From assembly GCA_002269645.1 (NCBI GenBank), contig NIVC01000211.1, positions 186,001-250,000 on the forward strand: a stretch of 64,000 bases of DNA. The letters run 5' to 3'. The stretch comes from Macrostomum lignano (Eukaryota). The translations under genes were made by a program, and so were the position numbers. The notes below the pieces were generated by a model. That model searched no databases and was not told where the DNA came from. It saw only the letters and a list, made by a program, of their open reading frames with translations. The stretch's first letter is position 1. Every line of letters begins with the position of its first letter. Below, in pieces: positions 10,284-39,834 of this stretch.

Positions 10284-11677
10284 ATGCAGTCCTGGACTCT
10301 GCTCATCGCCCTTCTGCTGGGTCTCGCCTGCTGCACGGTTTCTGCAGATGCCAACGGACAGTCGGGTTACATGGACGTGAGCAGCTTCGCTCGAGTCGGC
10401 ACCACCACATTCAAAGGATCGAAGTTGGGCGTCTTTGAAGTCGATGGGGTTCGCGTTGCCGAGCCGAGAGTCTCGTTCCAGTCCTCATGCAGTGCTGTAG
10501 AGTTCAGTCGGATGTACATGAAGTACCAGCTGACTCTGTCGATTCGCATCGATCCCAACGCGCTCCGATCGCGCAAGGGCTCGTCGAAGAAAGTCGGCCG
10601 CGTGTCAATCATCGGTCTGAATGTGAAGGCGGACCGAGGCTTGTCCAGCCGACAGTCCGGGCTTTCCGTGATGGCGAAGGTGAAAAAATCGGGCAGGAGG
10701 GCCGACCTCGTCTTCCTGTGCAGCTCGTTCCGCAGGTGCCGGTACCTCAGAGACGAGCTCGTGAGCAACCGGCGAAACTTCGGCCGAACGCTGCAGTTCA
10801 AAGCTCTCGGCAGAGTCGGCAGCATTCCGGTGAGGTTCGGCTTCAGGAGCAGCGCCAACCTGCCGAGGCTGAGCTGCAACCGGCACCGCTGGATCGTGTT
10901 CCAGAGGCGGGTCGACGGCAGCCTCTCGTTCGCTCAGAACTGGGACTCCTATGTTAAGGGATTCGGAAATCCCAGCTCCAACTACTGGATGGGTGAGTTG
11001 AGCAGTAGCGGAGATAAAGTGCAAAATGCATGCCCTCATTCCGGGGCTCTTCTTCGTTCATATCTGTGCTCGTTCAGTACCTAAAATTCCTTTCGTGCTT
11101 CGGTAATTATACAGTCAGTGGAGAACTACAGGTACCTTGTCAAATTACTTCCAGTCACTTTGAATAAATATGCAAACCTTGAAAACATTGCGTAAACACT
11201 TGAAAATCAGAGTTGGTCCACTATTTCCCACCCACAGGCTTGGACCGTCTGTCCGAGATGACGAAAACCAGTTCAGAGCGGCTGACTTCCCGGTGCCGGT
11301 TGAGAATCGAGGCCCAGAGCTTTAGAGGCAGGAAGTACAGAGCCGAGTTCAGAATGTTCCAAGTGCTCGGTCCTGAGCAGCAGTACCGCCTGCGCGTCGG
11401 ACTGCAGGTCGGCCGGTCGGCACTGGGCAACGCGTTTCAGGGGCACAGCGATATGAGGTTCAGCACATTCGACAGAGATCACGACACCTCAAAGCATTCG
11501 TGCTCTCAAATATACGGCTACGGTGGTTGGTGGTTTAACAGGTGCTACGGCGTGAACCTGAACGGAGCCTACACCACCAACAGGGAGATCACTAACGATG
11601 CAACGTACATGAGCTTCTACTTGCGTGGAAAACACGTTCCAATGAGGCGCAGTCTGATGAAATTCAGGTGCTATTGA
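10284..11677 (+). CDS. Secreted fibrinogen-related-domain (FReD) protein, copy 1. Exons 10284-10992 and 11238-11677, 382 aa.
   Basis: Signal peptide MQSWTLLIALLLGLACCTVSA. FReD motifs WIVFQRRVDGS, NWDSYVKGFG, YWMG|LDRL (spliced in frame), MRFSTFDRDHD and GGWWFNRC. Confidence 0.9.
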
Positions 11678-12044
11678 TCTTCCGCTCGTACTGTTCAGCA
11701 GACAGTTCTGACTCATGACTGCTTATTTTTATTCAAGATTTCTTGGTACATGGTGCTTTTCTGAATTCGGGTTATAAAATCAATACAATTACTATCTTTT
11801 AGCTTCCTCACGTGAGAACAGACTCAAAGTTTCTACAAAGTTGCCGCCAAAGAGGAAAACGCAAAATAAATAATATTTATTCTTGTGGATTTTACAATAG
11901 CCACACGGTGTTTTCGTGAAGTTTTAATTTATGATTGTGAGATGCGATCAATGTTAAATATACAGTGAAAAGTTTATCTTTAAAATATCAAAATTCCGAT
12001 CTTTTTCGCTTTTACTTTGCTCTCCAAACAGTGAAATCGGCCTG

Positions 12045-12199
12045 AGTAGTAGAGGATAACACAACTCTGCCGCAGGGAAAGCCACGGAAATTCCGTGGGC
12101 CCGGATCAGAAGGGCGCCTGTGTGTTTGCATAGCTCAACTCTGCCGCAGGCAAAGCCATGGGAATTCCGTAGACTCCTAGTGAGAGTACATAGGCACCT
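12045..12199 (+). repeat. Left terminal inverted repeat of Polinton
   Basis: Reverse complement of 28958-29116, with 3 internal mismatches and a 4-nt terminal difference. Confidence 0.97.
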
Positions 12200-12339: not shown

Positions 12340-13083
12340 ATGGTCGATATTGGAGAAGGCTACAAACTTCAAGTACAAGAGTATGAAGGAGTACAGTTTA
12401 TTGCGATTCGGAAATTTTATCGACATGGCAGCACAGCAAGTTTAAAACCTGGCGTTCCCGGATTTAACCTCAACATCCGACAATGGGAGAAGTTGAAAGA
12501 ACTGAAGCAAACTCTCGTGAAGGCGGCCCTAGGCGGGCAACAGAGGATCATCAAACTCGGTTTTGATAAGTTTGTTGAGGTTAAGAACGGCATCATCTGG
12601 CTAAGACGGCTTCCAGAAGATTGTTGCGAAGAATTTTTGAAGCGAAACACTGTGGCTTTGGCACCAGCTCTGTGGCGAAAACTGTGGGAGCAGGCTGCAT
12701 GGATCGACGAGCAGCTGTCTGCCCCGCGCCAAATTTCTGATGTGTATGAGCTGGAGTCGGGATCTTCGAGCGAGAGCAACGGTGATGATGATGACAACAG
12801 CAACAAGGACGACACCGTGCGGCTTGCGAAGACTGAGGATGAGGGCGTCCAATCAAGCACTCTGCGCATCGACGATGAAGTGGTCACATCAACGCCTCTA
12901 CCGGTGACAAGTGCTGCAGCTGGCTTTATCCCAAAGCAGGATTCGGATTTGCTGCAGGACCCAGTCTGGTATCGCTTCCGGGCTGAAGCAGCTGCGGTCG
13001 AGAACGTCAGGAAGCGCAAGCAGCCATATCCGCTGCGCAGGCATAATGCCATGAGACTGCGCCTCAATGAGGATGAGGAGTGA
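12340..13083 (+). CDS. Polinton-encoded protein with two tandem PC4 (p15/Sub1)-like domains and an acidic/basic tail, 247 aa
   Basis: VDIG..YKLQVQEYEGVQFIAIRKFY...LKPGVPGFNLNIRQWEKLKE matches the PC4 core (FQIG..[20 protein letters not shown]...[20 protein letters not shown]). A second, more divergent copy IKLG..KFVEV...IWLRR...VALAPALWRKLWEQAAWIDEQL follows. Confidence 0.8.
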   Translation: MVDIGEGYKLQVQEYEGVQFIAIRKFYRHGSTASLKPGVPGFNLNIRQWEKLKELKQTLVKAALGGQQRIIKLGFDKFVEVKNGIIWLRRLPEDCCEEFLKRNTVALAPALWRKLWEQAAWIDEQLSAPRQISDVYELESGSSSESNGDDDDNSNKDDTVRLAKTEDEGVQSSTLRIDDEVVTSTPLPVTSAAAGFIPKQDSDLLQDPVWYRFRAEAAAVENVRKRKQPYPLRRHNAMRLRLNEDEE

Positions 13084-13343: not shown

Positions 13344-13480
13344 ATGGAAAAAAAATTACTTTGCTCCTGGCCAACCAGCTAGTTTTTCAATTTGCTCAAA
13401 GCTGCTGCATCAAGTTGGAGAAGAGGGTGGGCATAAAAATTGAAAGAGCATTGAACAGTGGCTCAATGAGCAAACCGCGA
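13344..13480 (+). pseudogene. Degenerate direct duplication of the integrase 5' end
   Basis: ATGGAAAAAAAAATTACTTTGCTCCTGGCCAACCAGCTAGTTTTTC...CAAAGCTGCTGCAT...AAAGAGCATTGAACAGTGGCTCAATGAGCA parallels 13534-13670. Confidence 0.7.
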
Positions 13481-13533: not shown

Positions 13534-14604
13534 ATGGAAAAGATCTACTACAACCCTGCTCAGCCTGCCAGTTTTTCGGGTGTCTCAAAGCTTCTGCACG
13601 AGCTCAAGAAAACACAGGATAATCGTGAATCTAAAAAGAGCATCGGACAATGGCTGACTGAGCAGCCTGTGTACACACTGCACAAGCAAGCTAGGAGACG
13701 CTATCCTATGGCACCAATCATTGTTAGGGCTATTGATGATCAGTGGGAACTTGACCTGGTTGAGATGATACCATTTGCAAAATACAATAACGGCTACAAG
13801 TATATTCTCACATGTATAGATGTCCTCTCTAAATCTGGTTGGGCCAGGCCTCTAAAAAACAAATCAGCTGCGGAAGTCAAGTTCGCATTCGAGAGTATCC
13901 TGAGGTGCTCAAAGCGCCAGCCACGCACAGTCCGCACGGATCAAGGAAAAGAGTTCATCAATACCAATTTTCGGGAGTTCTGTATAAGCAAGGGAATTTT
14001 GGCATTCCCCACTAATAGTGAGCAAAAAGCAGCCATCATAGAGAGGTGGAATAGAACTTTGAAAAACAAAATGTGGCGATATTTCACCCACAAGAGCACT
14101 TTGCATTGGGTTGATGTGTTGCCAAAGCTGGTCAAGTCGTACAACAACACTTACCACAGAAGCATCAAAATGGCACCGACTAGCGTATGCAAAGAGAATG
14201 AGACTGAGGTCTGGATGAACCTTTACAATGGAAGAGCCATTGAGACTGTGAAGAAGCCAAAGAAGCCCAAATTCAGTGAAAAGCAGTCAGTGAGAATTTC
14301 CAATGCACCCAGGCTATTCTGCAAAGGATACAAGGCCAACTGGAGTGAGGAGGTGTACACTGTAGTATGTAGGGCACCGAAGCACTATCCGTACATGTAC
14401 AAGATTAGGGACATGAAGGGTGAGGCGATCCGGGGTCTCTTTCATGAGCATGAGCTGCAGGCGATGCCGGACTCACAGCGACTGTATGTGATTGAGAAGA
14501 TTCTGAAAACGGAGAAGCGGAAGGGAAAAATTCGCTATCTGGTGAAGTGGTCCGGCTACGACTCGACAGGCTGGGTGGATGAAAAAGACTTAAGAAAGGT
14601 TTAG
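13534..14604 (+). CDS. Polinton retroviral-like (rve) integrase with C-terminal chromodomain
   Basis: DDE triad in WELDLVEM, RTDQGKEF and IIERWNRTLK. Chromodomain YVIEKILKTEKRKGKIRYLVKWSGY. Open frame; first ATG at 13534. Confidence 0.95.
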   Translation: MEKIYYNPAQPASFSGVSKLLHELKKTQDNRESKKSIGQWLTEQPVYTLHKQARRRYPMAPIIVRAIDDQWELDLVEMIPFAKYNNGYKYILTCIDVLSKSGWARPLKNKSAAEVKFAFESILRCSKRQPRTVRTDQGKEFINTNFREFCISKGILAFPTNSEQKAAIIERWNRTLKNKMWRYFTHKSTLHWVDVLPKLVKSYNNTYHRSIKMAPTSVCKENETEVWMNLYNGRAIETVKKPKKPKFSEKQSVRISNAPRLFCKGYKANWSEEVYTVVCRAPKHYPYMYKIRDMKGEAIRGLFHEHELQAMPDSQRLYVIEKILKTEKRKGKIRYLVKWSGYDSTGWVDEKDLRKV

Positions 14605-14641
14605 CTTTTGCGCATCTCTTCTCATGAGGTTTAACATTATA

Positions 14642-15451
14642 ATGCAAACTATTTTGATTAACAGTGAGCATGCTGAAGGTACTCCTAGTGACTTTAATTT
14701 TTACCTGCCTTCACCTATTTACTTGGATCGAAATGTGGACTATGAGGCAGGTCTGGCTGAAATCCATCTGCCTGCTGCATGGTTCAATGTTGACGAGCCT
14801 TACTGCTTCACTGTCTCAGATGGAAGAGAGCATGAGGCCCTGGTTCTTCAACCCGGACGCTTTTCTAGAGTGGAGGAGCTGGTGGAGCGCCTGAATGAGC
14901 TGCTGGCCAACTCTGATTCGCTGTTCTTTGATGCGATGAGTGACAGGGAGTCTGAGATGGAGGCTGATGAGTCCGGCCTGATGGGGCGTAGTGGCAACAG
15001 GGAATTCGGTATGAAGTTCGAAATCCACAACTCACGAACTGTGGTGCACAACAACACTGCGAGAGCAGAGCTGTTTCTTCCATCTAGTAAAATTCTGCAT
15101 TGGCTGGGATTTGGAAACCAGGCTGTGAAAATCCAGCCAGGGAGCCGTGTGTCCGAGCACTGCATTGGCTGCCCGCGCACCAGCTTAATCAATGTGCACT
15201 GCAGTATCGTTGAGTCAACTAATTGCAACTTGGGCTCCCTGTTGAGAACAGTTGGAATGAAAGCCGGCATTGAATGGGGCAACTATCAAACAAAAATATT
15301 TAAGAAAACAATATTCTTCCCGATTCAACGAATCAGTCTTCTTCACAGCATTCGAGTTCAGCTGCGTGACATCTATGGTTGCCCAGTGATTGCCCAGAAA
15401 CTCAGCCCTGTTCTGCTCACAGTTCAGATTCGGGAGAAACGCATTCAATGA
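14642..15451 (+). CDS. Polinton minor capsid protein (penton-like)
   Basis: SDFNFYLPSPIYLD..YEAGLAEIHLPAAWFNV N-terminus, C-terminal INVHCSIVES...LLRTV...SIRVQLRD, and position next to the MCP. Confidence 0.8.
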   Translation: MQTILINSEHAEGTPSDFNFYLPSPIYLDRNVDYEAGLAEIHLPAAWFNVDEPYCFTVSDGREHEALVLQPGRFSRVEELVERLNELLANSDSLFFDAMSDRESEMEADESGLMGRSGNREFGMKFEIHNSRTVVHNNTARAELFLPSSKILHWLGFGNQAVKIQPGSRVSEHCIGCPRTSLINVHCSIVESTNCNLGSLLRTVGMKAGIEWGNYQTKIFKKTIFFPIQRISLLHSIRVQLRDIYGCPVIAQKLSPVLLTVQIREKRIQ

Positions 15452-15837
15452 ACTACCAGCAGCTGATCCAGCAATATTCGGGGGTGAGGACAGGACACGA
15501 AAAGCCTGCACTCTATGGCTGTGGGAGCTTTCCGGGGATCATGACATACCAGCCTCCTCCAGCGGCTACATCATCATTCTCAACGCATAGCAATGTCAGG
15601 CGCAAAAGAAATATTGAAGCAAGTCCGAAACGATTGAAGAAGAAGAAGTACACCCGAAAGGCAACTGGTAGAGATCGCACTAATAAGAGGTGCAATGAAA
15701 GAAATCCGAGCAAGGCTAGTAGGAAAAAGCTTAAGAATAGGAAGACGAAAGCAAAGAAGAATAGAGCAGGTGGAGGAAAGCGAAAGCGAAAAGTCAGCAA
15801 GAAAACTGTGAAACGCGTGCTCGACTCTCTGTCATAG
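15448..15837 (+). CDS. Very Lys/Arg-rich small protein, putative core/DNA-condensing protein, 129 aa
   Basis: ATGA overlap with the penton stop. C-terminal half is dominated by K/R (RRKRN...KKKKYTRK...KRKRKVSKK). Function is inferred. Confidence 0.55.
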   Translation: MNYQQLIQQYSGVRTGHEKPALYGCGSFPGIMTYQPPPAATSSFSTHSNVRRKRNIEASPKRLKKKKYTRKATGRDRTNKRCNERNPSKASRKKLKNRKTKAKKNRAGGGKRKRKVSKKTVKRVLDSLS

Positions 15838-15841
15838 ACAT

Positions 15842-18151
15842 GTGGCTTACGGATTCAATCCCAGACTTGATTTATTTAAGACGCCTGTTCTACAAACCTG
15901 CATTGAAAAAGCTACTTATGTTGATATTCACCCAGTAAATTCCATTACTGCAAACTCCCCCATTGAATTTGACTGCCACCAATCTGCCGATGAATACACT
16001 GATTTGCTTAATTCTTTTCTTTATATTCGCTGCCGCCTTGTGAGACTGTATGGGGGTTTGCTGAGGGAGGATGTTCGAGATGGAGATGGCATCATCACCG
16101 AGCGCAAAGACAGTGATGTGCACCCAGAAAACTTTGTTCTGTCTACAGCCTTCTCAGATGTAATTGTGAGCATTAACCAGCGAGTGGTGTCTGGTGGAGA
16201 CCAGCTCTATCCCTACCATGAGTACTTCAAAGCACTAATGAGCTCATCCGATGCCCAGCAACTAAAACTTTACCCTGCTGGCTTCCTGGAGCCGAACTCG
16301 GCAGCTGAAGAGCACACGGAGAGCCACAGGGAATCCCGATGGATGGAGTTGTAGAGTATTATATCTCCCAGAAAAGTTATTTAAAATTGTTAACGTACTA
16401 CTTAAATAGTAGTAATTTGAGGAGCATGTATAAGGATATGCGCTGAACCATACATATATTCGAATTAACCAATAGAAAGAGAGAAATCTCGAGCATGCTA
16501 ATTTTAGAAATCACCCAATCACGTGCGACCAACAACTGTCAATTCAAACCCCACCTTCAAGTCATCATTTGGTTTGCACTCGGGTTGCACCCGGATGAAC
16601 CAATCAAAGTCTACCAGCTACGGTAACCAATCATGCGCTTTTACAGTAGACTAGTTGCGCAACTTTCTACCCTGTCATGCTTGACAGCCACCGAATCGTG
16701 ACCCTTTGACATTTGCGAAGACAGTGATGTACGACCTCGAGAGAGGTCTGAACGCCTATAAATACAAGTGGTCTGGAACGGACTCAGAGCCAACAATTCC
16801 TCCGGAAGGAGAAGAGCTCCGAAGAGGAAGCCACTACAGGACTTCCTACAGAAGACTCGTCGAGTTCTTGCGGTAAGCCTTACTCATTTGCGCCTGTGTT
16901 TCGAGACGTCTCGTTGGAGTTTAGTTTGAGTCTGTTGAGACTCCTGAGTCTGTCTAGACTCTACTGGTTGCAGTCTCCAGAAGGACTGCCCCTGATAGAT
17001 CTTAGAAGACTATCAGTGGTTTCCGGAGCTATATCTAGAGTGCATAGAGGCACTGCTAGAAGGAGTAGGCTTATATTAAACCGCAGTTTGGCGCAGGGTA
17101 CCCATTGTTGATTTGGAAGCTTCCCATTGGTCCGCACTACAGATACCGGCCGGAAACGACTTCAGTGGACGAAAAGGAACGCGGACCTGGTTACGAACAT
17201 AGACGTCTAACGAAGTTCGAGGGTCAAAGGAAGTCCGAGAACTACAGAACTACAGAAGAGCTCTCCGATACAGGACTCAAGGTAATACATACCTTCATTT
17301 GATTACTGGGTTGCCTAGCTACAGAGCTAGAAGTGAGTGTTCTTTGATTACCAAAAGTCGGGTAATAAGGAACACATCAGAGTATGCGAGACCGCTCTTC
17401 AGCGATGTTTTCCAGTGCCCAGTGTTTCTGCTAAACAATCTGCACTTGCACATCAAACTGGTGCCCAGCGATGGGGCATTTGCTATCAGAAGCCCGAATG
17501 CAAACAACGCGGCATATCGCATGGAAATCTCTCACTGCATTTTGCATCTTCGCCGAGTCAAAGTGGTGCCCCACATCAGCCTGGCCCACGAGCAGGGGCT
17601 GACAAACCAAAATGCACTGTATCCCATCGAGCGAACTGAAATGCAGAACTTCATCCTACCCCAGGGCATTCAATCTAAAAACATTGAAGGATTCACTCAT
17701 GGAAAATTGCCGAAGTTCATCATGCTGGCCTTCGTGAGCCACCGTGCATTCAACGGTCATCATCACGTTCCAGTTCCAGAGCTTCAACCTTAGCTGGTTG
17801 GCTCTAAAGAAAGGTGGGGAAACCGTGTGCCACGGTGCCTTCACACCTGAAAACAATTCCTTTGTAAGAGAATACTTGCACTACCTGAAAAGCTGTCAAT
17901 CTGCAAGCCACACGAACTCGGTTCCGTGGATCCCTTACCAGCTCTTCTCCAACAACAACACGGTTTTTGCTTTCGATCTCACACCCGAGGGAGCGGCTCT
18001 GTGGTACGGACAGGAGGAGGGCAACCTGCGGCTGGAGATTCGCTTCCGACAGGCTCTGGACGAAACGGTGTCCCTGATCGCTCTGTGCCTGTATGACTCG
18101 CTGATTGAGGTCACCAAGCACCGGGAGCTTTTGCTGGACTATTCCTCTTAA
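15842..18151 (+). pseudogene. Polinton major capsid protein (double jelly-roll), split by a solo LTR and frameshifted near 17770
   Basis: LDLFKTPVLQTCIE...HPVNSITANSPIEF...YTDLLNSFLY (15842-16349). PLFSDVF...GKLPKFIMLAFVSHRAFNG (17324-17770). FAFDLTP...GNLRLEIRF...LCLYDSLIEV (to 18151). Confidence 0.9.
16350..17323. mobile_element. Solo LTR (974 bp) inserted in the major capsid gene
   Basis: TGTAG...CTACA inverted termini, near-TSD GAGT/GAGC, several CCAAT boxes and TATAAATA at 16757. No coding capacity; it interrupts the MCP. Confidence 0.7.
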
Positions 18152-18156
18152 CTGGC

Positions 18157-18666
18157 ATGGAAGCAATTCAACTACTCCATCTCGCCAGAAAATTTTTGTC
18201 TTGCCGAAAATTCCTCATCATTACTTTACATTCACGCTATAAAAATGTATTGTCTTTGAGTCTAAAAAGAAAATATCGATCAATTCCCTTTGAAAACAAG
18301 TTTGTGTTTATCCTACTACAGCACAATGGCTCATTTGGTCATTGGGTGGTGTGCTATGCTGGGCAAGGAAATTGCATTGAGCTGTTCAACTCCCTCGGCT
18401 GGGAACCTGAAATTTAATCTGTGGTTTATAATTTGTTTCGAGAGATTAATACAACTGGCTTTTGGCTCCGAAGCAATAAAAACAGATTTCAATGTGCTAA
18501 CTCTAATAAATGCGGAGTGTTTTGCATCTATTTTGCTTATCAAAAGTTGCTGATCAATCGGTCATTTGAGGGTATTTTAAAGAGTTTGCACTCTAATGAA
18601 AAAAATCATTTGAATGATAGAATCTTACAGAGGTTTGAAGCCAACTTAAGAAAAAGATGTCCGTGA
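18157..18666 (+). pseudogene. Adenain-like cysteine protease with in-frame TAA at 18415-18417
   Basis: GHWVVC...ELFNSLG (usually FDS) and, in the same frame after the stop, RFQ...NKCGVFC. Confidence 0.85.
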
Positions 18667-18695: not shown

Positions 18696-19343
18696 ATGGG
18701 AGAAAAGCGAGTTTGCTACGATATCCGCCTCAGGCAGGGAAGCTGCATGATTGTCTGCGGGCCCACCAATGCAGGAAAAACAACCTTTGTCAAACACCTG
18801 ATCCAGTACAGAGACGTCATGTTTGATGTGAAGCCTGGCAGAGTTCTGTGGTACTATGGGATCTCACAGGCAGGCCATGCAGAACTGAGCAGCCTAGGTG
18901 TGCAGCTGCGCCAGGGATTTCCCACCAACATCGAGGCAGCACTTAGGCCCAATGACCTGGTTGTTTTCGATGACTTAATAGAGGAAACTTCAAATTCTGC
19001 TTCAATGCGAAATTTTTTCACAGGAATCGCACATCACTTGCCGTGCTTTTTGGTGATGCTGACTCAGAATATATTTTTCAAGGGAAAAGAGTCGCGAACA
19101 ATGAGCTTGAATGTAATGTATTTAGCTATCTTGAAAAACCCCAGAGACCAGCTGCAGATTGCAGCACTGGGCAGGCAGTGCTTTACAGAGAAGCCCGGCT
19201 TTCTGCTGTCAGTGTTCAAGCACGTGACCGCGCAGAACAGGGGAGCCTACCTGTTCCTAGACTTTCACCCATCAACTCCCGATGAGCTGCGAGTGCGGGC
19301 CAGAATTCTGCCCAACCAGCGACCCCATCTTGTATTTGCTTAA
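18696..19343 (+). CDS. Polinton genome-packaging ATPase (A32/FtsK-like)
   Basis: Walker A GPTNAGKT, Walker B LVVFDDL, and SLNVMYLAILKNPRD. Confidence 0.93.
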   Translation: MGEKRVCYDIRLRQGSCMIVCGPTNAGKTTFVKHLIQYRDVMFDVKPGRVLWYYGISQAGHAELSSLGVQLRQGFPTNIEAALRPNDLVVFDDLIEETSNSASMRNFFTGIAHHLPCFLVMLTQNIFFKGKESRTMSLNVMYLAILKNPRDQLQIAALGRQCFTEKPGFLLSVFKHVTAQNRGAYLFLDFHPSTPDELRVRARILPNQRPHLVFA

Positions 19344-19385: not shown

Positions 19386-19724
19386 ATGGAAGTGCTTGAT
19401 TCACATGCAAGTCTTTTTGCGGTTCTTGCGTCACCTAAATATACCGTGCGCTTCAAGCGGCTGTTGATAAAAAAATGTCCAAAAGAAGTGCGTTATTTTC
19501 TTGTTGAGGCCTGTCATAATCTCTTACAAAACAATTTATCGTTTTCGATCGATGAAAAAGCTGTTCTTGCAAATTCAAAAGAGATAATTCGAAAAATTAC
19601 TCAGCAGAGAAGAAAGAAAGACCTGTTAAAGGCTGGCTTCATCAAAATACTCCCGATTCTGCTTAAGCTGGTAAAGAAGAAGAAGCAAAATGAACAAATT
19701 TTCAGAAATGGTTCTGATTTCTAA
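19386..19724 (+). CDS. Small conserved Polinton protein of unknown function
   Basis: LVEACHNLLQNNL...KKDLLKAGFIKILPILL resembles the small protein commonly found after the ATPase. Recognised from memory of the family. Confidence 0.55.
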   Translation: MEVLDSHASLFAVLASPKYTVRFKRLLIKKCPKEVRYFLVEACHNLLQNNLSFSIDEKAVLANSKEIIRKITQQRRKKDLLKAGFIKILPILLKLVKKKKQNEQIFRNGSDF

Positions 19725-20382
19725 AGCAGAGTATGAGATGTTGGTGCAGAATTTGAAGCCAAATGAGAATAGCACTGACGCTGACTTGAAGCAGGCTCAG
19801 AAGAAATGCGATGATATCTTGTATGCCGATGATTATCCAGAAGATGTGAAAACCGCCATGTATCAAAGTGCAATGCAAAGTTTGCTGGCCAAGCGCAAGT
19901 ACGCTGGAAAAGAAGGATCACGAAATACTGAAGCCAAGTTGATGAAAACAGAGACACCCCAGATGAACACCTGGGAAGAGAAGATCAGCAAGTCGGTGCC
20001 ACAGAAATTCAAAACCAGGGCTCGCAGTCTATGGACGATCCTGTCCACCAATCCAGAGCTGATTCGAGTTTGTGAAAACGGGGAGGTGGAAATCACAGGC
20101 ACTTCAATCCCTTCCTCAAACATACTGGACTTGATTCAGCACGCAGTGAGGGATTCGCCATGTGAGCGTGAACCAGTTGGGTGGAACGAGTTCATCGATT
20201 TGCTGCAGCAGAAAAAGCTTAATGTTCCGCTTTCTGCTGTTGGTAAATCAGTTAAAAAGAAAATGGCAACCAGCAGAGGGGGTGAACTGGAGAAAGAACA
20301 GGAGAGTCTAGTCAAGGGGTACGGGAGCAACACAGCCTGGCTGAAACTGCCCGGAAGAAAAATATATAAGAATGGGAACTGA
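19690..20382 (+). CDS. Conserved Polinton hypothetical protein
   Basis: GEVEITGTSIPSSNILDLIQHAVR...PVGWNEFIDLL...NVPLSAVG pattern typical of a Polinton core hypothetical. Intact ORF. Confidence 0.6.
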   Translation: MNKFSEMVLISKAEYEMLVQNLKPNENSTDADLKQAQKKCDDILYADDYPEDVKTAMYQSAMQSLLAKRKYAGKEGSRNTEAKLMKTETPQMNTWEEKISKSVPQKFKTRARSLWTILSTNPELIRVCENGEVEITGTSIPSSNILDLIQHAVRDSPCEREPVGWNEFIDLLQQKKLNVPLSAVGKSVKKKMATSRGGELEKEQESLVKGYGSNTAWLKLPGRKIYKNGN

Positions 20383-20410: not shown

Positions 20411-20885
20411 ATGAACTACATTGACTTCCAAGGATTCCCGTGCAACAGCAAAAAATTTGTTGTGAAGGAGTTGGCAGTTGTTCAAGTCAGAGTGGGAAGC
20501 TACCGCATTGCTCACCATGTGTACGCACCTCCGTATCCATGGGAGAGAGTCTCACCTGACATGCGAGTTTGCTACAGACAGCTATCAAAGAGTCTGCACC
20601 AGTTTAAGTGGAATGATGGAACCCGTCCGTACATGGAACTGGCGGAAGACATTCTGAGCATTGCCAGTGGTCCGATCTGGACAAATGGGGAAAGGAAGTC
20701 TATTTTCCTGACTGAGCTGCTTGGTAGACAGGTTTATAACCTAGAAGATTTGGGAGCACCCTCGACTGAAGATTCAGATACTGGCTGTGCAGTGAGAAAT
20801 TCGTTGCTGCACTACAGTTGGCTTAAGCCAAAGTTCTGCATCAACTTAAGAAGCGAGCAGTGTCCGTGGCACACGAGCAGTAAAG
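20411..20885 (+). CDS. DEDD/DnaQ-like exonuclease-fold protein; ORF runs on out of frame across the TBP gene to 21256
   Basis: YIDFQGF...FVVKELAVV...PPYPW...HQFKWNDG...LGRQVYNLEDLGAP. The tail beyond ~20885 is an off-frame reading of the TBP gene. Confidence 0.6.
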
Positions 20886-20924
20886 TTGGCAGAAGCAGAT
20901 TTGGTGAAGAAGTTGACGATCGAA

Positions 20925-21515
20925 ATGAGCCCACCAGCTACAGCCCTAAGAGTGACCAATCTGGTTGGCGGAGTAGATCTGAGGCTGGATGGTGGCAGGG
21001 GCGCTCAGCTACCTCTACGGGAACTGGCTCTCAGCATGGCTCATGTGATCTACCGGCCCGTCTGGCCCCGGGTGCTCATCAAGCGGATGCGGAGTCCCAG
21101 AGTGACTCTGCTACTCTACCCTACTGGGCAACTGAGCATCTGCGGTGCCAAGACCCACGCAGACGCCAAAAGGGCTGCCCGTCGCTTCGTGGCTATGCTG
21201 CATCGGAGAGTGCCAGCTCAACTGCTGCCTCCTCAAGCCATTTGTGTTCGGATTAAAACTATTACTGCTCATGGTAAATTTAACTTCTGCAATGCTTTGT
21301 CCCTCGCAAATCTTGCTGCCTCTGGCATACTGTCTTACGCTGAGTATGAGCCCGAGTCGTTCTCTGCTCTAATTTCTACATTACGTTATTGTAAATGCTT
21401 GTTATTTCATACTGGTTCTTTTGTTCTTAGTGGAGCAAAATCTATGAGCATGTTGCGCTTCGACCTTTCTACGTTGCATAGTTTAATCAGCCAGTTTATC
21501 ACCTATCAAAAATAA
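20925..21515 (+). CDS. TATA-binding protein (TBP)-like protein encoded inside the Polinton, 196 aa from the first ATG
   Basis: Both TBP saddle repeats are recognisable: VTNLVG...PRVTLLLYPTGQLSICGAK...AKRAARRF, and YEPESFSALI...CLLFHTGSFVLSGAK. Compare TBP QNIVS...PRTTALIFSSGKMVCTGAK...SRLAARKY...YEPELFPGLI...LLIFVSGKVVLTGAK. Confidence 0.9.
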   Translation: MSPPATALRVTNLVGGVDLRLDGGRGAQLPLRELALSMAHVIYRPVWPRVLIKRMRSPRVTLLLYPTGQLSICGAKTHADAKRAARRFVAMLHRRVPAQLLPPQAICVRIKTITAHGKFNFCNALSLANLAASGILSYAEYEPESFSALISTLRYCKCLLFHTGSFVLSGAKSMSMLRFDLSTLHSLISQFITYQK

Positions 21516-21636: not shown

Positions 21637-24600
21637 TCACTTATTAAATTCGTGGTCTTCTTCCCGGCGCCGCTTTCGGGAGGCTGTAGCATTCACGTGC
21701 TGTTGCAGCTGCGACGACTCCGGATGAAGAAGTTGGAAATGGCCAAACGGGAGACTGTAGTTCGGTGCCAGCCAAGCGCGCTTGTCCTCCCAAATGCTTA
21801 AGGCACACTTTCGCTGCTCCAGCGTGAATAGCCTGTGTTGGATGCTTGCGATCCTGTGGATGATGACGGACATGCTACTCAGATCATTGAAGACTCTCAA
21901 GTAATCACTATGCGCAATCTCCTTCTTGACGACACATCCTTGAATGCCTTTGGCTTTTTTCTTTTCAGCAGCTGCAGTGCTAGCGAGAAAGGAATACAGC
22001 TTTGGTCTCAAAAGCAACCATTCGAGATAGCGAGCTCCAGCTCCTTCGTCCTTGATGCAACCGAGGCGAGCTTTCAATTCATTTGAGAACAGCGGGTGCT
22101 CAGGTGAATAGTTGGAAGTGTCAAGGAGTTTCTTTGCTTTTAGCAGTGGAAGAACTTCCGACTGCACATCCATATTCTGAATGCAAAGAAAGAGCGAGTC
22201 GGTGTCTCCACCACAGAGCCGAACACGGGCACCCTCTTGCTCAAGCCAAGGCTTCAATTTGTCGTAGAATAACTCGTACATGATTAGCTTCGAATAGTCA
22301 AGAACACACTGGCCAATAAAAATCGGACGATCAAGCTTGACCTTAGTCTTCTGGAATTCAATTATGCTCAGTGAGTCGGTAATTATGATAAAGTTCTTAA
22401 TGGATGGTTTTGAAGCCAGCACCTTTGCTTTTGCAGTGTTGGTGCAAATCCGAATGTCACGTCGCTTACGCACGTTTTCCATTGTTTTTCCGAAGAGCGC
22501 ATTGTTTTTTAGTTTGTAGTAGTCTTTCTCGAAGCTGTTTGTCGCAGCAGCTCTTTTCACGCTGTTCATGTTAACATAGTCAGCAAATATCGGCTCCTGT
22601 TTGTACTCAATCATTCGATTAATTCGTTTGATTTTCATTCCATGCCTCAAGTAGAATGCCAAGATAGCCGAATGAAGCACATAACTCTGCTTGTCATGGC
22701 AGGTGAGCAGAAGTTTTTCTGCCGAACGATAGGCTGCTTTGTCTCCAGTAATCTGCCTCCAAAGCTGTTGCATGTAGGCAGGAAATTCTTTGAATTTTGG
22801 TGCTTCTTTTTCTGGTGCAAAAGGCAAATCTTCAGTGGTGGAATGTATCTCTGCTGGATATAGAAGATCGACATCGAGCAGATAAGCAATTGGATCTGAG
22901 ATTTTGAGCCCTCGGATACGATCCTCGGTCCACAGCTGTAGCTCATCTTCGGAAAGCCAGCGAAATCCATTTGCAGGTAAGTTCATGGTAAGAGCTTGAC
23001 CGTAAAGGTTGTTAGCATCTACTGCTAGAAGCTCGGTAGGAACAGCTTGATCAGCGCCCTCGTCGTGACAGTCATTATCATCATCATCATTGTCATTGCA
23101 GATAGTCTGATTGTCAGCTGCTTCCAAATTTTTTCTAATATCTGGAGAGTTGGCTGACACTCTGTGTATGTTCACAAATGACATGCCACCGCGAATACCG
23201 CGCTCGAATGTTGCATACATTTGCGAATCCGTAATCAGCTCGATTCTGGATTTGAGAGACTTCAGTGCTGAAGCAAAAGATAATCCCGGGGTTGAAACGA
23301 AATGCACCGGATCAAGGCCATCATCACGAAGGCTGAGCTTGCGAAAATTTTCAAAGACATCGGCGAGCTGCCGAATGTCAAGCTCAAGGTAGCATAGCAT
23401 GTACTCTTTCAACGTTTTAACTTGGAATTCGTGCCATGCTTTCTGTGCATGCCTGTAATCCTCATCACTGCAGTGGCTTTTAGTCAGAACGTTGTAGAAT
23501 TGTTCTTTACTTGGCAGCTCGGTATCCTCAAGGACATTTGAATTGGTTAAGTAGTCGTACGGAAAAGTGCATTTTCTGAATAAAACTTCTGGAGACAACA
23601 GTGGAAACTTACTTTTTAGCAGGCTAGTGATGGTGCACTCTTCTTCTGGCAGGTTCTTGATCAGCTGAGCCAAGCTGGCGTTGAGAAATTGGTTAGAATC
23701 AATGAATTGAATGGTAAAGAACAATGGCTTAGTCTTTCCTCCCCTCTCGTACTCATCGATTTTGAAGTCAACTTTAATTGAAACAAACTGCTCAGGATTC
23801 TGTGGAATAACCGAAATCCTCCATCCATCCATGAGATCCAAAGCCGTTGACATAATGAGATGAAGGTCATAGCCTTTTAGATTGTGGAAAACCACAGGAA
23901 GAAAGCGCCTTTTTAGACGAGCCTGCATGTTGCACTGAGCACAGGCTGCACCTCGGAATTCGCCACTGAGGTGATCATGATCCCAGTGCTTTCCGCTTTC
24001 ACTATCAAAGCCGCTTCCGCAGTAGTGACACGATATAGCGTCGCGGAAGCGTTGCTTTGCAGCCTCCGTTCTAATAGCCGTCTGATGACTGAACTCCGTG
24101 TTCCAGCCATAAACCTCTCGAGCTAGCTGTTCAAGGGACTGCAAGAAGTCAGAAACACACTTTTTCGGATTTTCACTCACAAATATGTTAACATAATTGT
24201 CGACTCATATAGGTGATAACCCTGTGAGGCCTGCTCGGTGCACCACCAAGTAACCAGCAGCAACGGCAACATGCTCTGTCAGCTTTACAGTGCTCGAACC
24301 AGCTTCAGTCTGCTGCCCTGTGTGAGGTGCATTCAATGCCTCGAAGTCGGCGTACACAATGAATGGTGGGCTGATTGTCTTTTCCCACGCCGTAAACCGA
24401 AGTACATTGTGATCTTCATCCGGAAGTTCTTCCTGTACAAAAATCCCACCAGGCTCACAGACATCTTCACAGTGCTCATCGAACGCCTTGCTAGTGTGAA
24501 ATGACAGCAGACAACGCTCACACCACTTTCGCTGGTACAGGTGGGCTTTACTGTTCAACAATCTGTTGATGTTCGAGACAGCACACCAATGACCACCAGC

Positions 24601-25470
24601 TGAGTTCTCGTTCGTGGATGGTGGAAGAAACATCAGCAGGACAACTGTTCGTCCTCTCATGGTAGCTGCGCTTGGCTGTCGGAGGACTTCAGCAGCTTCA
24701 TTCTCCCAGGTGAAAACAGTGAAGCAAAGGGTTGGATTTAATTCCTCGACAGCAGACAGATCGTACAAATTGATCGGCAGACTCAGTCCCGTAATGTTAA
24801 TCTCATCTAGCCATTCGGTGTACGAGGATTCTCGTTGAGCTGACTTCTTAATACGGCAGTGATCTTTGTAAAGAAAGGCAAGGCACGCGTAAACAAAGCA
24901 ATTTTCACCGCTGCTAGGAGGAGAAATGACGGCCTTCTTTTGAAAAAGCGCAGTCGGCAAACTAAACCCAGCCGCATGCCCCGAATAGTAGGGAGTTCGA
25001 ACAGCGAGGGCAGAGCAAAGGTCGAAGAAATTTATTTTGTCAATGGCCCATCTACTGCCATTAGCGTTGTACACGTCTACTATCTGCTCTAACTCTGCAA
25101 ATTGCTGCCTCCACCAGTCATCAAATTCCTGCACATCAACCAGCATACAAAGATTTGTACTCATCCATTTGTTTTCAACATTGACTGCTTCTGCTGCCTG
25201 CACCCGAATCATGCGCACGTTTAGCTTAATTTGTGCTCTTAGCGAACAGTTGTCAATGGAGTCAAGACGAACTTCGAGATACTGCAGAACCGCATGTTTG
25301 ACCAGGTCTAGAAACTCGAATGGATCAATGTCAGCTGTTGGGGCGAAGCGATGAATCTGCAGTACATCATCGTGGGCACTGTTCACCAAGGAGATAACAC
25401 ATGAAGACCCTAAAAATAAAATCGAGAGATAAGATAGTGAAAATCGAGAAACATAAACTGAGAGTCTCAT
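21637..25470 (-). pseudogene. Protein-primed family-B DNA polymerase (pPolB) with a single in-frame TGA at 24205-24207
   Basis: ORFs 24205-25470 and 21637-24180 share a frame (SPI*VDNYVNIFVSENPKKCV). Motifs VDANNLYG, KLKNNALFGK and GDTDS. EndoVII-like CHYC...DHDHLSGEFRGAAC..CN. Exonuclease FHNLKGYD. Confidence 0.93.
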
Positions 25471-25579
25471 GATTGCTTATAAATCCAGCTCAATTAGCTA
25501 TTCATAATAATCGATGTCTGTATGCAGAATCGAGGAGGGTTTTTTTGGATGTATACAATCGATATAGGTGTGCAGAGGT

Positions 25580-26990: not shown

Positions 26991-28418
26991 TTAAGAGTTA
27001 CTCAAGCGAATACGGATCCCCCCTCCAAAGTCAATTGAGTACTCGCCCACAACGCTACTCGGTAGGACGAATTGAAGGCAAACTGACGGTGCAGCCATCG
27101 GTTCAGCGGCTTGGACTCCTGCTGATTGTTGAACCACCGGTGGGGTAGCATGAGGTTCGACTCCTGCTGATTGTTGAAACTCTGGTACCACCGGTGGGGT
27201 AGCATGAGGTTCGACTCCTGCTGATTGTTGAACCACCGGTGGGGTAGCATGAGGTTCGACTCCTGCTGATTGTTGAACCACCGGTGGGGTAGCATGAGGT
27301 TCGACTCCTGCTGATTGTTGAAACTCTGGTACCACCGGTGGGGTAGCATGAGGTTCGACTCCTGCTGATTGTTGAACCACCGGTGGGGTAGCATGAGGTT
27401 CGACTCCTGCTGATTGTTGAACCACCGGTGGGGTAGCATGAGGTTCGACTCCTGCTGATTGTTGAACCACCGGTGGGGTAGCATGAGGTTCGACTCCTGC
27501 TGATTGTGGAAACTCTGGTACCACCGGTGGGGTAGCATGAGGTTCGACTCCTGCTGATTGTTGAAAGTCTGGTACCACCGGTGGGGTAGCATGAGGTTCG
27601 AAATCTCGTAGGAGATCAGACAGGCTGGCATCCGCCATCATTCCAGCCATATTTTTTCCAGCGACTGGAACAGCCCTGTGCGGTGGCTGCTGCTCGACCG
27701 TGGCTTTTTCGTTCGTATCCTCTGACTCCAACTCGTGCTCCTCAAAGAAAGCCGTGTCCAATTCTGGCGGAGCAACAAAATCAGCGGCAGCAGCATCATC
27801 CTCATAGCGATTTACCGGTGTCTGAAGACTGAGAGCACCAGCCGCTGGAACGTCGACGCTGGCAGCTTGATGGTCGATGCCAGCAGGTCCAGGAGCAGCA
27901 GCTGAATAGTCGACGCTGGCAGCTTGATGGTCGATGCCAGCAGGTCCAGGAGCAGCAGCTGGATAGTCGACGCTGGCAGGTCCAGGAAGGCTGGCAACAT
28001 CAGCTGGATGCTGATCTGCAGCAGCAAGTGCAGCGGAAATCAAATCAAAAGTACATGTAGTTGAAATTATTGCAGATTGATTTCGCACACCTTGAATCGT
28101 CTGGCTCAGGGTGCTGACCGGGGCTCGATGACGCTCGATCATGTTGAGTTGCTCCTGGCGGTGGGCGGCCTCCAGTACAGTAAAGCGGGCTCGTTCGATG
28201 CTATCAGGCGAGCTCCAATTAATGATGGTGCGATTTTTATGGGCCCGAACTTGGCGGCGCACATTGAACAGCTCAGTTGTGTGGCACTCGTGGCAAAGCA
28301 ACCAGCGACTTATAATGCAGCTGTCTTTTTTGTTATGGAGCTTTAACCCACCGAGCTCACAGGAATTGCAGCTGATGCGCACCTCGTGCACGTAGGATGG
28401 ACACCGAGATTTATTCAT
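26991..28418 (-). CDS. Polinton accessory ORF, 475 aa, with an N-terminal CxxC...CxxC motif and tandem peptide repeats
   Basis: CNSC...CHECH at the N-terminus, 10 copies of GVEPHATPPVV(PEF)QQSA, and TATATAA on the minus strand ~80 nt upstream (28498-28504). No family recognised. Confidence 0.6.
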   Translation of the reverse strand: MNKSRCPSYVHEVRISCNSCELGGLKLHNKKDSCIISRWLLCHECHTTELFNVRRQVRAHKNRTIINWSSPDSIERARFTVLEAAHRQEQLNMIERHRAPVSTLSQTIQGVRNQSAIISTTCTFDLISAALAAADQHPADVASLPGPASVDYPAAAPGPAGIDHQAASVDYSAAAPGPAGIDHQAASVDVPAAGALSLQTPVNRYEDDAAAADFVAPPELDTAFFEEHELESEDTNEKATVEQQPPHRAVPVAGKNMAGMMADASLSDLLRDFEPHATPPVVPDFQQSAGVEPHATPPVVPEFPQSAGVEPHATPPVVQQSAGVEPHATPPVVQQSAGVEPHATPPVVQQSAGVEPHATPPVVPEFQQSAGVEPHATPPVVQQSAGVEPHATPPVVQQSAGVEPHATPPVVPEFQQSAGVEPHATPPVVQQSAGVQAAEPMAAPSVCLQFVLPSSVVGEYSIDFGGGIRIRLSNS

Positions 28419-28957: not shown

Positions 28958-29116
28958 AGGTGCCTATGTACTCTCATTAGGAGTCTACGGAATTCCCATG
29001 GCTTTGCCTGCGGCAGAGTTGAGCTATGCAAACACATGGGCGCCCTTCTGATCCGGGCCCACGGAATTTCCGTGGCTTTCCCTGCGGCAGAGTTGTGTTA
29101 TCCTCTACTACTTACT
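28958..29116 (-). repeat. Right terminal inverted repeat of Polinton
   Basis: Ends ...CCTCTACTACTTACT and is followed by TSD GGCCTG. Confidence 0.97.
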
Positions 29117-29671
29117 GGCCTGTCCTAACGCAAAGAATATTAAGATTCATTCATTCATACAAATTAAGCAAGGGGCTTTCGAGCACCGGCCTTCTCCGCA
29201 TTTGAGGAACACAAAAACAGTCTGAATGTGTCTGTGAGTTCTGGTAGAAGCCAAGCTTGGAATGGATAAGAGAATATTCGATGGAGAGTATTTTATTGCT
29301 ACTCCTTAGTAGGCAAAAGAGCTTGTAGAGAGTTAAAAAGACAAAGGCTCCGCTTGTTTTAGCAAGTGTAGCTTGTCGATCGCTGATTGCGAACCGGCAT
29401 TCTAAGAGCTGGCAGAAACCTGCACAAGTACAAACATCGATGAGTACATTTGCTGAGGTTTGTCGAGTTTCGGTCTTTTATTGCAAGATTGTTGTTATGT
29501 GCAAGACTCTAGTTGCCTTCAATGAATCTTCGATTCCATTGTGCCTTCCAAGTTTTTTATATCTATCTTAGCCTTAGTTGCCAGCTATCGCTATCTTCTA
29601 CTTGCTCATATGACATTCGAGCCGTGACTTATAAGCAGACCGAAACACGGAAGGCCGAAAGGTTTTTGTGC

Positions 29672-33889: not shown

Positions 33890-34172
33890 AATATACAAAT
33901 TTTCCTTCGATTTCCTTCGACTTTTCCTTCGACTTTATCGGAAAATTGTGTGTTCCTTCGAATCCGACTTTATCGGAAAATTGTCTCTTCTTTCGAATCC
34001 GACTTTATCGGAAAATTGTCTGTTCCTTCGAAATAAAGAATTTCGGCAAATCAGGAATTTCGGCAAATCGGGAATCGGCGACTCGGGAATTTCGGCGAAC
34101 CAGGAATCGGCGAATCGGGATTCGGCGAGCTGGGAATCGGCAAATCGGGATTCGGCGAATCGGGGGTAAACC
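33890..34172 (-). repeat. Dispersed repeat with short subterminal TTGCCGAAATTCC-type modules; inverted copy at 51060-51270
   Basis: GGTTTACCCCCGA..CGCCGA.TCCCGATT...GCCGAAATTCC is shared between the two loci in opposite orientation. Confidence 0.6.
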
Positions 34173-34739
34173 GCTGCCTGGTCTCTTCCGGTCGGCAGAG
34201 CGGGTGCGGAGTTAAGGAGATTTCTAAAATATTGGCGAAGAATCTCTTTCGAAAGGTGTCGCTAACGTTCGACAACAAAAGCAGACAATTTTCACCGAGA
34301 TGAAAGAAATGTGGAAATCCTGAAATCTCTACCTGAGTCCTCAGGTAGAAATCAGAATGACAATCAAAGTGAGCACATACTTAATCGATTTACACATTGC
34401 GAGCCATAAGAAAGAACTGTCTAAGGTCGACATCATTTCTGAGACCACTTTTCGAAAACTTGTTAAAATACAGTTTGAGCTTGAACTTGAGCTTGAGCTT
34501 AAGCATCGAGTAATCGGACTTTGACACGTCTGAAGTAAATATTTACCCCAGGGGGACCTGGTCGACACAGCCTTTATATTAAAAAAGGAGAGCACATAGC
34601 CGCGGTGTGGGCCTGGTAGCCACTCTGTAGAGCAGGCAACCACGTGCACACTGCAGACGACAGCCCAGCTGGTATGTGCTTTCTCGATTCAGGAGTGGCT
34701 CAGGTTCCGGTCAGCGACCGCTCCTGATCAGCGGCACTG

Positions 34740-34915
34740 CTGCTGTTGTTGTTGTTGTTGTTGTAGTTGTTGTTGTGTGTTGTTGTTGTTGTTGTTGTTG
34801 TTGTTATTGGTGTTGTTGTTGTGTGTTTTTGTTGTTTCTGTTGTTGTTGCTGCTGTTATTGTTGTTATTGTTGTGTGTTGTTGTTATTTTTGTTGTTGTT
34901 GTTGTTGTTGTTTGC
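34740..34915. repeat. (GTT)n/(AAC)n microsatellite at the 3' end of LINE 1
   Basis: Direct reading. Confidence 0.95.
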
Positions 34916-37900: not shown

Positions 37901-39203
37901 CAGGCCCAGGAAAACCTGGGTTCTTTGGCCAGGGCCGGGCGGATACCATGAATCGTGATGAGAATCGGCTTATGGTCAGAACCCAGCTCCGGCAGGACAG
38001 TCCAAGAGCACCGCCCAGCTAGGGATCTGCTGGCGAAAGAAATGTCCGGGGCGCTCTCCTGTCCTGACCGGCGGTCGACACAGGTGAGTGCCGTGGTTGA
38101 GGAAGCGGTAGTCGTTATTCTCGACCCAGTCAACTAGGCAGCCGGCTTCAGTAACGTCTTCTGGTCCTTGGCCGGGTTTGCTGCCCCATTTCTGGTGGTG
38201 CAGGTTAAAGTCTCCCACAATGAGCTCCGCATTGTGCGGGGTGAGCCAGGAGACCACACTAGGGTTGATTCTTCTGTCCACCGTGTTGGAGCGCCGCGTT
38301 GGTGGTCGGTAGACATTGGTCAGAACTATAGTCTCGTGGGCGGTGATGTGCAAGGCGATACGATGCCCTACCGTGATGCCACCGCCCCAGTACCGAAGCT
38401 TTCGGAAGGAGATAGATTGGCGCACGAAAACCAGCAGCCCTCCTCCTTTGGACTCGACTCCATTGCGGGAAATTTGCCGGTCTTTTCTGATGGTGGAAAA
38501 ACCCGGAATCCTGGGGTTGGGATGCTGTTTTTTCCAGCTTCGATTCCTGGACGGCGATAAGGTCAATAGAGAGCCGATTGGCTATTTCTTCAAGTTCTCC
38601 CAACTTATTGCGGATACCATCCGCGTTCCATTGGAGGAGCCTAATACCAGGCTCCGACATGTCTTCGCTGGTGGTTTTGAAGTCCTGGCTGGGATCAGGT
38701 GAGCGCTGGTTCGGTTGCCCTTCCTCAGCCGGTCCGTTAAGGTGATGCAAGCAGGTTTCGCAGGTCCAGCGGCCCGTGGCGACGTCCCGTCGGATAGCCT
38801 CTATGGTCTGCTTGGTGCAAGCGTTATGGAACAGCCTCTCGCACACTTTGCACTCCGCAATAATGGCGGAGATGCGGACGGGCTTGTTGCAATCACCGCA
38901 CTTTGGTTTTTCTCTTTGAATGAGCTGCATGAGTCTGGTACGGCGTTGAGTGGTCATGGGTTTGCCATCCACCTCCGGCGCGGCCGGGGGGGTGTGGTTC
39001 TGATTCTGTTGGGTGGAGCATGCCGTATCGTTCCGGTTGTCCTGGGAGCAAACAGTGCATTGCCAGGTCGTCCAGTCGGTGCGATCAGCCCTCCATCGCG
39101 TGAGACCCGATCAGGAGCTCTGCCGGTGAAAATGGCGCAGGCAATTAGAACAGACCGCGGGGTTATTGCGAATCGAAGTGCCGCAGTTCGGGTGACCACA
39201 ATC

Positions 39204-39263
39204 CGGTCCCGGGTTGGGTTCGACATCTCCGGCCATAAGGAGCAGCGCAAGGAGCTGGGGGGC
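39204..39263 (-). other. 2A-like ribosome-skipping peptide (APQLLALLLMAGDVEPNPGP)
   Basis: Exact D(V/I)ExNPGP consensus with a hydrophobic upstream helix. Confidence 0.85.
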
Positions 39264-39356
39264 CGGGCGCCCAACTCCGTAGGTCTTAGGCCTCAGTTCG
39301 TGCGCTCTCGTTCTACGTAGCCAAACTAGACCAGGTGGCGATCTGGTGTCCGAGTT

Positions 39357-39471
39357 TAGGCGCTCTTCGGGCTCCGCCAAAAAGGCGGGGCGACCCCTCC
39401 ACGACGATGACGTGGCGCCTAGCAGGAGCCAACGGTGGTTGTCCGGTGGGCCAGAGGTAAACCGCGGCGGG
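39357..39471 (-). ncRNA. Candidate HDV-like ribozyme at the 5' end of LINE 1 (P1 imperfect)
   Basis: P2 UAGGCGC/GCGCCUA, P3 ACG/CGU, L3 UCAUCGU, P4 CCGCC/GGCGG and J4/2 CGAA. Spacing parallels the LINE 2 ribozyme, but no clean 5' P1 strand was found for GGAGGGG. Confidence 0.5.

Positions 39472-39706: not shown

Positions 39707-39737
<31 letters not shown>

Positions 39738-39796: not shown

Positions 39797-39834
<38 letters not shown>

Follow-up and report, generated by a model that had tools for sequence, protein, structure and literature searches.

The window, by which we mean the whole 64,000-nt stretch of Macrostomum lignano DNA that was analysed, contains a Polinton with an intact gene for a homologue of the TATA-binding protein (TBP), and the distribution and evolution of its copies show that this is a selected, long-resident Polinton gene encoding a viral-type TBP. 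A non-canonical TATA-like word, CTTAAGAA, recurs upstream of the genes of the element. We consider it likely that the protein is an element-encoded promoter-recognition factor steering host RNA polymerase II (Pol II) to the late genes.

A TBP gene resident in Polintons

The element is about 17 kb long, with 155-nt terminal inverted repeats (TIRs) and a 6-bp target duplication, GGCCTG (Table 1). Its TIRs, duplication, length within 15-20 kb and genes for integrase, PolB, ATPase, capsid and protease are those of Polintons/Mavericks, the integrase being labelled by Pfam and the other four from motifs, gene position and similarity to related loci. In the window copy the PolB-like, capsid-like and protease-like genes are broken and the TBP frame is intact; open ORFs homologous to the major-capsid-like gene are found in loci L062 and L105. 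The 1034-nt insert in the capsid gene is probably another repeat, since it is skipped in the contigs of all four runs compared and is itself deeply covered. The packaging ATPase has 150 matches in the genome. The PC4 gene is also present in family B (L062:6194-6631); it is preceded by canonical TATATAAG or TATAAAAG in copies L088, L089 and L096 and by neither in the window copy. The window copy and L099 both have a decayed second copy of the integrase 5' end (13344-13480). Elsewhere in the window, a second 17-kb stretch (34031-51269) has inverted short tandem repeats at its ends and is full of LINE and LTR retroelements; fibrinogen-domain ORFs flank it (10284-11084 and 51627-52448), suggesting a local duplication. 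Inverted repeats of 50-60 nt cluster at 1838-2231.

Table 1. Positions of the element features and of the candidate promoter words, numbered from the first base of the window.
Feature	Position	Strand	Remarks
Left TIR	12045..12199	+	starts AGTAGT; GGCCTG at 12039-12044
PC4-domain protein, second transcription-related gene	12340..13083	+	PF02229, E 4.8e-7
CTTAAGAA	13302..13309	+	42 nt 5' of decayed integrase duplicate (13344), 232 nt 5' of intact integrase
Integrase with chromodomain	13534..14604	+	PF00665, PF00385
CTTAAGAA	14589..14596	+	35 nt 5' of minor-capsid-like ORF
Minor-capsid-like ORF	14624..15451	+	putative, from position and weak likeness to relatives; no Pfam match
TTTAAGAA	15299..15306	+	149 nt 5' of ORF 15448
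Basic core-protein-like ORF (putative)	15448..15837	+	
CTTAAGAA	15730..15737	+	about 110 nt 5' of major capsid start
Major-capsid-like gene	15840..18152	+	presumed from position and recall; broken here by 1034-nt insert (16346-17379) and frameshifts
Cysteine-protease-like gene	18157..18665	+	presumed from GHW motif and position; frameshifted in window copy; end approximate
CTTAAGAA	18645..18652	+	51 nt 5' of packaging ATPase
Packaging-type P-loop ATPase	18696..19343	+	Walker A visible
CTTAAGAA	19339..19346	+	47 nt 5' of ORF 19386; contains ATPase stop codon
Two conserved ORFs	19386-19724, 19690-20382	+	also adjoin ATPase in distant Polintons
TATAAGAA, inside canonical-looking TATATAAG	20365..20372	+	46 nt 5' of likely exonuclease-like start 20411
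Exonuclease-like ORF	20411..21256	+	label from the original prediction; no Pfam match
CTTAAGAA, candidate promoter word	20845..20852	+	80 nt 5' of TBP ATG
Element-encoded TBP homologue	20925..21515	+	196 aa, both repeats, frame intact
Protein-primed PolB-like gene	21637..25470	-	presumed from visible polymerase motifs; interrupted near 24205 here (two ORFs); no Pfam match
475-aa repeat-rich ORF	26991..28418	-	downstream of TATATAAG at about 28504
Right TIR	28958..29116	-	GGCCTG at 29117-29122

The original prediction, made from the sequence alone, had placed a 196-aa TBP-like ORF between the exonuclease-like ORF and PolB, well inside the TIRs, and this position was reproduced. Both halves of the TBP core are matched by PF00352 in two stretches (E 1.1e-24, 86.5 bits against the curated cut-off of 22.9), and the near absence of an N-terminal extension was likewise borne out, the protein being a bare core with no N-terminal tail. 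Sequence comparison gave 35 TBP sequences of the PDB as matches. An AlphaFold (AF2) model built from a 131-row alignment rich in ordinary TBPs reached pLDDT 95 and pTM 0.86, and its Foldseek superposition on solved TBPs in the PDB, proposed earlier as a check, recovered the TBP fold with TMq 0.71-0.82 (best 3oc3_C, TMq 0.82, rmsd 1.8 A). According to this model the ORF encodes a two-lobed alpha/beta TBP saddle. Structural matches in BFVD were virus TBP-like proteins (TMq 0.5-0.7), and the ESM Atlas returned general TBP clusters only. The gene is intronless as had been noted, which is uninformative since the core of host TBP is likewise one open frame; contigs of four runs presumed to be RNA span the TBP bin with no splice joint among them.

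The first 332 nt (111 codons) of the TBP gene are shared with the exonuclease-like frame, which in both family A and family B remains open over 110-130 codons from the TBP start (window 20925-21256; L062:4914-5302). We detected at least 151 matches to the element TBP in the genome (150 of 229 candidates scored), and 94 of the 150 matches listed are near full length and free of stops. The assembly looks redundant, with host TBP on three contigs, so independent TBP insertions are fewer than the matches. Linkage of the copies to Polintons, suggested earlier as a check, was confirmed: 57 of 58 distinct copies lie beside Polinton genes and the exception is a decayed fragment; an exonuclease-like neighbour accompanies 56 of the 58, and PolB, ATPase, integrase or capsid genes are near 54. 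Family A copies are 76-100% identical, while family B, at 36-38% identity, belongs to a separate Polinton with the same exonuclease-TBP order and a PC4 gene.

The dN/dS analysis suggested with the original prediction pointed to purifying selection, with values of 0.05-0.26 between family-A subfamilies over codons 8-116 of the N-terminal half; these are pairwise estimates from 12 family-A copies (21 distinct intact frames, 14 used), and the overlapping exonuclease-like frame over the first 111 codons may also depress N-half dS. Very close pairs gave 0.5 and 1.5 (the latter L061 versus L085) from few changes and are uninformative. Synonymous sites within codons 117-186 frequently reach saturation, even in pairs whose N-half dS is as low as 0.07. 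In the same family-A copies the upstream genes are more than 90% identical and PolB only 51-58%; hence recombination has taken place within the TBP gene, and the last 70 residues of the protein go with the PolB side. The recurrent recombination point lies at about 21270 (TBP codon 117), where N-terminal halves that are almost the same are followed by strongly divergent C-terminal 70 residues and PolB types, and the exonuclease-like frame ends near it. Among the rearranged or deleted copies, which include L096, L066 lacks the capsid module between integrase and ATPase, and L098 has the PC4 gene and a TIR beside the capsid gene.

Saddle residues and the candidate promoter word

Saddle positions were numbered by mapping the list of DNA contacts of yeast TBP (Table 1 of PMC12529657) onto the alignment. 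Retention of the C-terminal pair of intercalating Phe was confirmed (F190 as F146, F207 as F161), as was the saddle Asn pattern, with N69 kept (N12) and N159 replaced by T112. The N-terminal pair is altered as proposed, F99 corresponding to P48 (with W47 adjacent) and F116 to Y65, the latter change being conservative; among 111 other TBPs, F99 is Phe in 109 and F116 in 108. The element TBP thus departs from the canonical cellular set of four intercalating Phe and two saddle Asn. The earlier description of the saddle as asymmetric holds for the four Phe only, as the C-terminal half is changed too (V161T, L189S, P191S, V203K). In full, the saddle changes are F99P, A101V, F116Y, V122S, T124C, N159T, V161T, L189S, P191S, T215S and V203K, and the equivalents of N69, V71, L114, F190, L205, F207 and V213 are unchanged. 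Of the new residues, Lys at the V203 equivalent is found in all 18 A/B rows, and Y65, P66, K111, T112, K157 and H162 are invariant among the A/B proteins (18/18). Judged from these alignments, both saddle lobes appear to be rebuilt toward a more polar surface, with several new residues fixed across families that are 36% alike.

Two TBP glutamates touch TFIIB, according to PMC7221094. This TFIIB-contact pair, E142 and E144 in the EPE motif of the C-terminal stirrup, is Glu in 18/18 A/B rows; the more distant group C TBPs described below have Asp at the first position. A genome-wide search for an element TFIIB with PF00382, a scan that could overlook a highly divergent TFIIB, gave 15 matches on seven contigs, all host-like, with no overlap between these contigs and the listed TBP or ATPase contigs.

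The word CTTAAGAA was found by aligning the upstream regions of element copies. It occurs eight times in the window versus 2.37 expected, a number reached in 0 of 100 shuffles, and its six occurrences within the element are all on the plus (cassette) strand. TAAGAA, shared by CTTAAGAA, TTTAAGAA and TATAAGAA, stands 35-150 nt upstream of eight of the 11 plus-strand genes when the decayed integrase duplicate is taken as the integrase start; in L088 the word lies 42 nt upstream of the integrase gene. TTAAGAA is present in 7/11 upstream windows, a level that no 7-mer reached in 2000 random placements, and the best letter permutation of the word reached 2/11. Among these 11 windows the word was not found upstream of PC4, the protease and ORF 19690. 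It occurs in three reading phases, and 54 of 56 of its bases are kept in a distant subfamily in which the flanks are 61-80% alike, so protein coding is not the cause of the word. Upstream of the TBP gene, CTTAAGAA, or TATAAAAG in family B, is present in 53 of 58 copies, the other five being truncated or decayed.

The element consensus can be written (C/T)(T/A)TAAGAA, on one strand and mostly 42-58 nt 5' of the integrase, capsid and ATPase genes and their neighbours. Like a herpesvirus-type late-promoter TBP, the element TBP is thus accompanied by a private TATA variant upstream of structural genes, with three bases of CTTAAGAA (1, 2 and 6) differing from the TATAAAAG-type consensus. The TATATAA motifs at 13253 and 28498, which the original prediction had named as TBP targets, are canonical TATA boxes and not the recurrent word, and no conservation of the one at 13253 is apparent in other subfamilies, where the region aligns poorly.

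Related TBPs and words in other Polinton lineages

The closest named protein relatives of the element TBP are labelled Macrostomum lignano, and others stand at 45-74%. A profile search of 1.84 billion representatives gave eight matches at E <= 1e-30, seven from the element TBP clade and one a tandem plant TBP, followed by a drop to general TBPs. A quick tree of 125 rows set 12 A/B proteins on one side of a branch with support 99, apart from host TBP and TLF. In a quick tree of 53 rows, cellular eukaryotic TBPs (97) and archaeal TBPs (99) formed separate groups, and all divergent short TBPs fell together at 93, unstarred, with A/B outside the cellular group. An AU test on 28 of the 53 rows rejected placing A/B with either host protein (TBP, p 0.005; TLF, p 0.03); both trees and test are limited by long branches. 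A captured TBP had been proposed, and of that proposal a recent capture from the M. lignano host is rejected by the AU test. The element TBP shows neither the residue pattern of TLF/TRF2/TBPL1 nor grouping with host TLF, whose own pattern (YEPELHP, F116 to Arg) is unlike it. The nematode-labelled divergent TBP P0143 clusters with the short element-type TBPs, and the 189-aa viral protein A0A5P9U4S6 is the second BFVD match; either may be a Maverick TBP.

TBPs were also found in further Polintons. The T group, the neighbour in the tree, was traced to four metagenome loci, and both loci inspected are Polintons, carrying ATPase, TBP, integrase and capsid-like genes as well as the same pair of small ORFs. 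Group C comprises five further Polinton families of the same genome, with ATPase identity of 31-34%, and each has a distant TBP-like frame on the PolB side; five of six frames tested matched PF00352, three above the cut-off. A TBP-less Polinton was sought as a control among these five families and none was found. A single origin of A/B and C has a support of 39. No A/B relatives were found in metagenome or viral contigs, the scans of viral contigs with the T group and with host TBP were blank, and scanning with the u group yielded just two giant-virus loci, at 23-28%. In four of four loci the group-C frames start at splice-acceptor-like sites. One of them continues stop-free into a deoxynucleoside kinase (L112:1372-2790, minus strand, PF01712 E 7e-24) and those of L137 and L138, with L133 listed alongside, into another long C-terminal stretch; these extensions may be fusions or read-through. 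Upstream of the ATPase, group-C Polintons also have two ORFs, one dUTPase-like and one phospholipase A2-like (PF08398) (L119:3688-4718).

Each lineage has its own word: CTTAAGAA occurs in 22/68 A windows, TATAAGC in 18/56 C windows and TTAAAAG in 7/19 T windows, with cross-lineage counts of 0-2, patterns that were picked after the data had been seen and from loci that are kin within one lineage. Strand bias is 46:4 in A and 38:1 in C, and distances from word to next ORF start peak at 42-58 nt, some words lying less than 20 nt from the ATG. Unbiased searches returned TTATAAGC in 13/52 C windows and TAAAAGA in 6/17 T windows; word discovery in family B alone (nine windows) was not significant. 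In a small control of about seven types, host H3 promoters had canonical TATAAA/TATATA in 7/17 regions and no CTTAAGAA-type words at 8 bases. The group-C word TTATAAGCAA is found at 25478-25486 on the minus strand of the window, just 5' of the PolB N-terminal ORF of the family-A element, which could be chance or cross-talk between families.

P191 is reported to favour T at the first TATA base (PMC12529657). Families A and B, whose words tolerate C at this base, have lost its equivalent; C and T have kept it, and their words begin with T or A. The 3' half of TATA is read by the N-lobe Phe pair, which is altered in A, B and C, with G at position 6 of their words, and intact in T, whose word ends AAAAG. 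This match of residues and words was made post hoc on four lineages.

Readings of the TBP and its word

Altered promoter specificity, as proposed originally, is supported at the level of sequence by purifying selection, Polinton linkage and the non-canonical word before structural genes. The element TBP would bind its private word in the minor groove, a word that host TBP would read poorly, and the kept C-stirrup glutamates would recruit host TFIIB and Pol II, so that the structural and integration module would be turned on as a late class. Host TBP would first read the genes behind a canonical TATA box (PC4 in several copies, the 26991 ORF and the exonuclease-like gene), and each Polinton lineage would have its own pair of TBP and word. 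As the family-A TBP gene lies downstream of its own private word, the system would need priming; possible sites are the canonical TATATAAG before the overlapping upstream gene and, in family B, the canonical TATAAAAG at TBP itself.

Loss of F99 and the change at N159 could weaken DNA binding, and together with the kept TFIIB-contact glutamates they would also suit a rather unlikely alternative, in which host TBP or TLF, aided by other element proteins, for instance PC4, reads the words as weak TATA boxes and the element TBP has another job, for example as a decoy for TFIIB, TFIIA or Mot1-type factors that damps host transcription. TATAAGAA and TATAAGC are indeed one or two changes from canonical TATA, and PDB titles show wild-type TBP on single G(-26) and T(-30) variants. 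However, the substituted saddle residues that are invariant in A/B suit a selected DNA surface rather than a decoy, and reading by the host fits poorly with words that vary with TBP lineage inside one host genome and with the three departures of CTTAAGAA from consensus. The dominant-negative or host-shutoff role raised by the original prediction found no positive support. We regard as improbable that the word is a late promoter for the RNA polymerase of a helper virus, with the TBP as a side feature. Baculovirus-type late promoters carry TAAG, the A, B and C words all include TTAAG or ATAAG, and virophages using giant-virus promoters offer an analogy; yet the T-group word TTAAAAG is without TAAG, the distances cluster at 42-58 nt like those of TATA boxes, the words differ between families of one host, and the splice-acceptor-like starts of group C point to nuclear Pol II.

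A neutral retrocopy of recent origin, derived from host TBP or TLF and carried by one element, is very hard to reconcile with the data. The lack of introns and the very close copies without a selection signal, such as L061 and L085, would agree with it, but identity to host TBP is 28%, the AU test speaks against both host proteins, selection is purifying between subfamilies and TBPs occur in three further Polinton lineages. A single recent processed host insertion was itself refuted by copy number, dN/dS and the AU test.

The promoter-recognition factor that we favour shares the two-repeat saddle and the C-stirrup EPE motif with cellular TBP (PF00352) and TLF/TRF2/TBPL1, and differs from cellular TBP in being about 25-28% identical, without an N-terminal tail and on a mobile element. 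The beta/gamma-herpesvirus TBP mimic, KSHV ORF24 with the late-promoter word TATTWAA, is alike in its TBP fold, polar saddle, private TATA variant and lack of an own RNA polymerase; in contrast to the bare 196-aa core with glutamates, ORF24 has 752 aa and all four Phe, lacks the TFIIB glutamates, makes direct contact with Pol II and depends on five partners (PMC12529657). The Pol II-binding N-terminal domain and the extra C-terminal DNA-binding domain of the herpesvirus type are absent from the element protein, and the likeness does not imply a common origin. Nucleocytoviricota likewise encode TBP-like proteins, mostly together with a viral TFIIB and with drifted Glu sites (PMC7221094), whereas families A and B have Glu fixed at both sites and our search returned no element TFIIB.

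Polintons, Mavericks and adintoviruses have AGT-ended TIRs, the 6-bp duplication and the gene set in common with our element (Starrett et al. 2021, PMC8502044). The original prediction had regarded a TBP in Polintons as new, but the Fig. 5 legend of the same paper already names a TBP-like gene in elements with adintovirus-like PolB; in the accessible text this label belongs to a section on non-animal datasets and comes without analysis, residues or promoter word. Such a gene has thus been noted in passing. Only that paper was relevant among the Polinton or Maverick literature searched for TBP/TATA, which left Repbase and most subscription journals outside; the main text of three recent polinton papers held no mention of TATA, TFIID or promoter, and a paper on cryptophyte PLVs had those terms only in its references. 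The word is a strong candidate target of the element TBP. What appears to be new within this searched literature is the sequence-derived Polinton TBP-promoter code, for which we found no earlier description.

More tentatively, and at somewhat less than even confidence, we propose that a wide lineage of animal Polintons uses a one-protein late switch, a bare TBP with rebuilt saddle, kept contact to host TFIIB and a private TATA variant, with TBP and word having diverged jointly into codes specific to each lineage. These codes would be CTTAAGAA, TATAAGCA and TTAAAAG, where position 1 could be C owing to the loss of P191 and position 6 could be G owing to the changed N-lobe. If so, several families in one genome need not activate each other. 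The favoured factor would represent a second solution, independent and far smaller, of the kind that herpesviruses use for late transcription. Its relatives would be natural TBPs of altered specificity that still work with host TFIIB and could help to explain how TATA is read. For the timing of Polinton capsid genes, and for self-sufficiency versus the need of a helper, TBP and word offer concrete entry points, namely a named protein, a target of eight bases and a start site that can be predicted.
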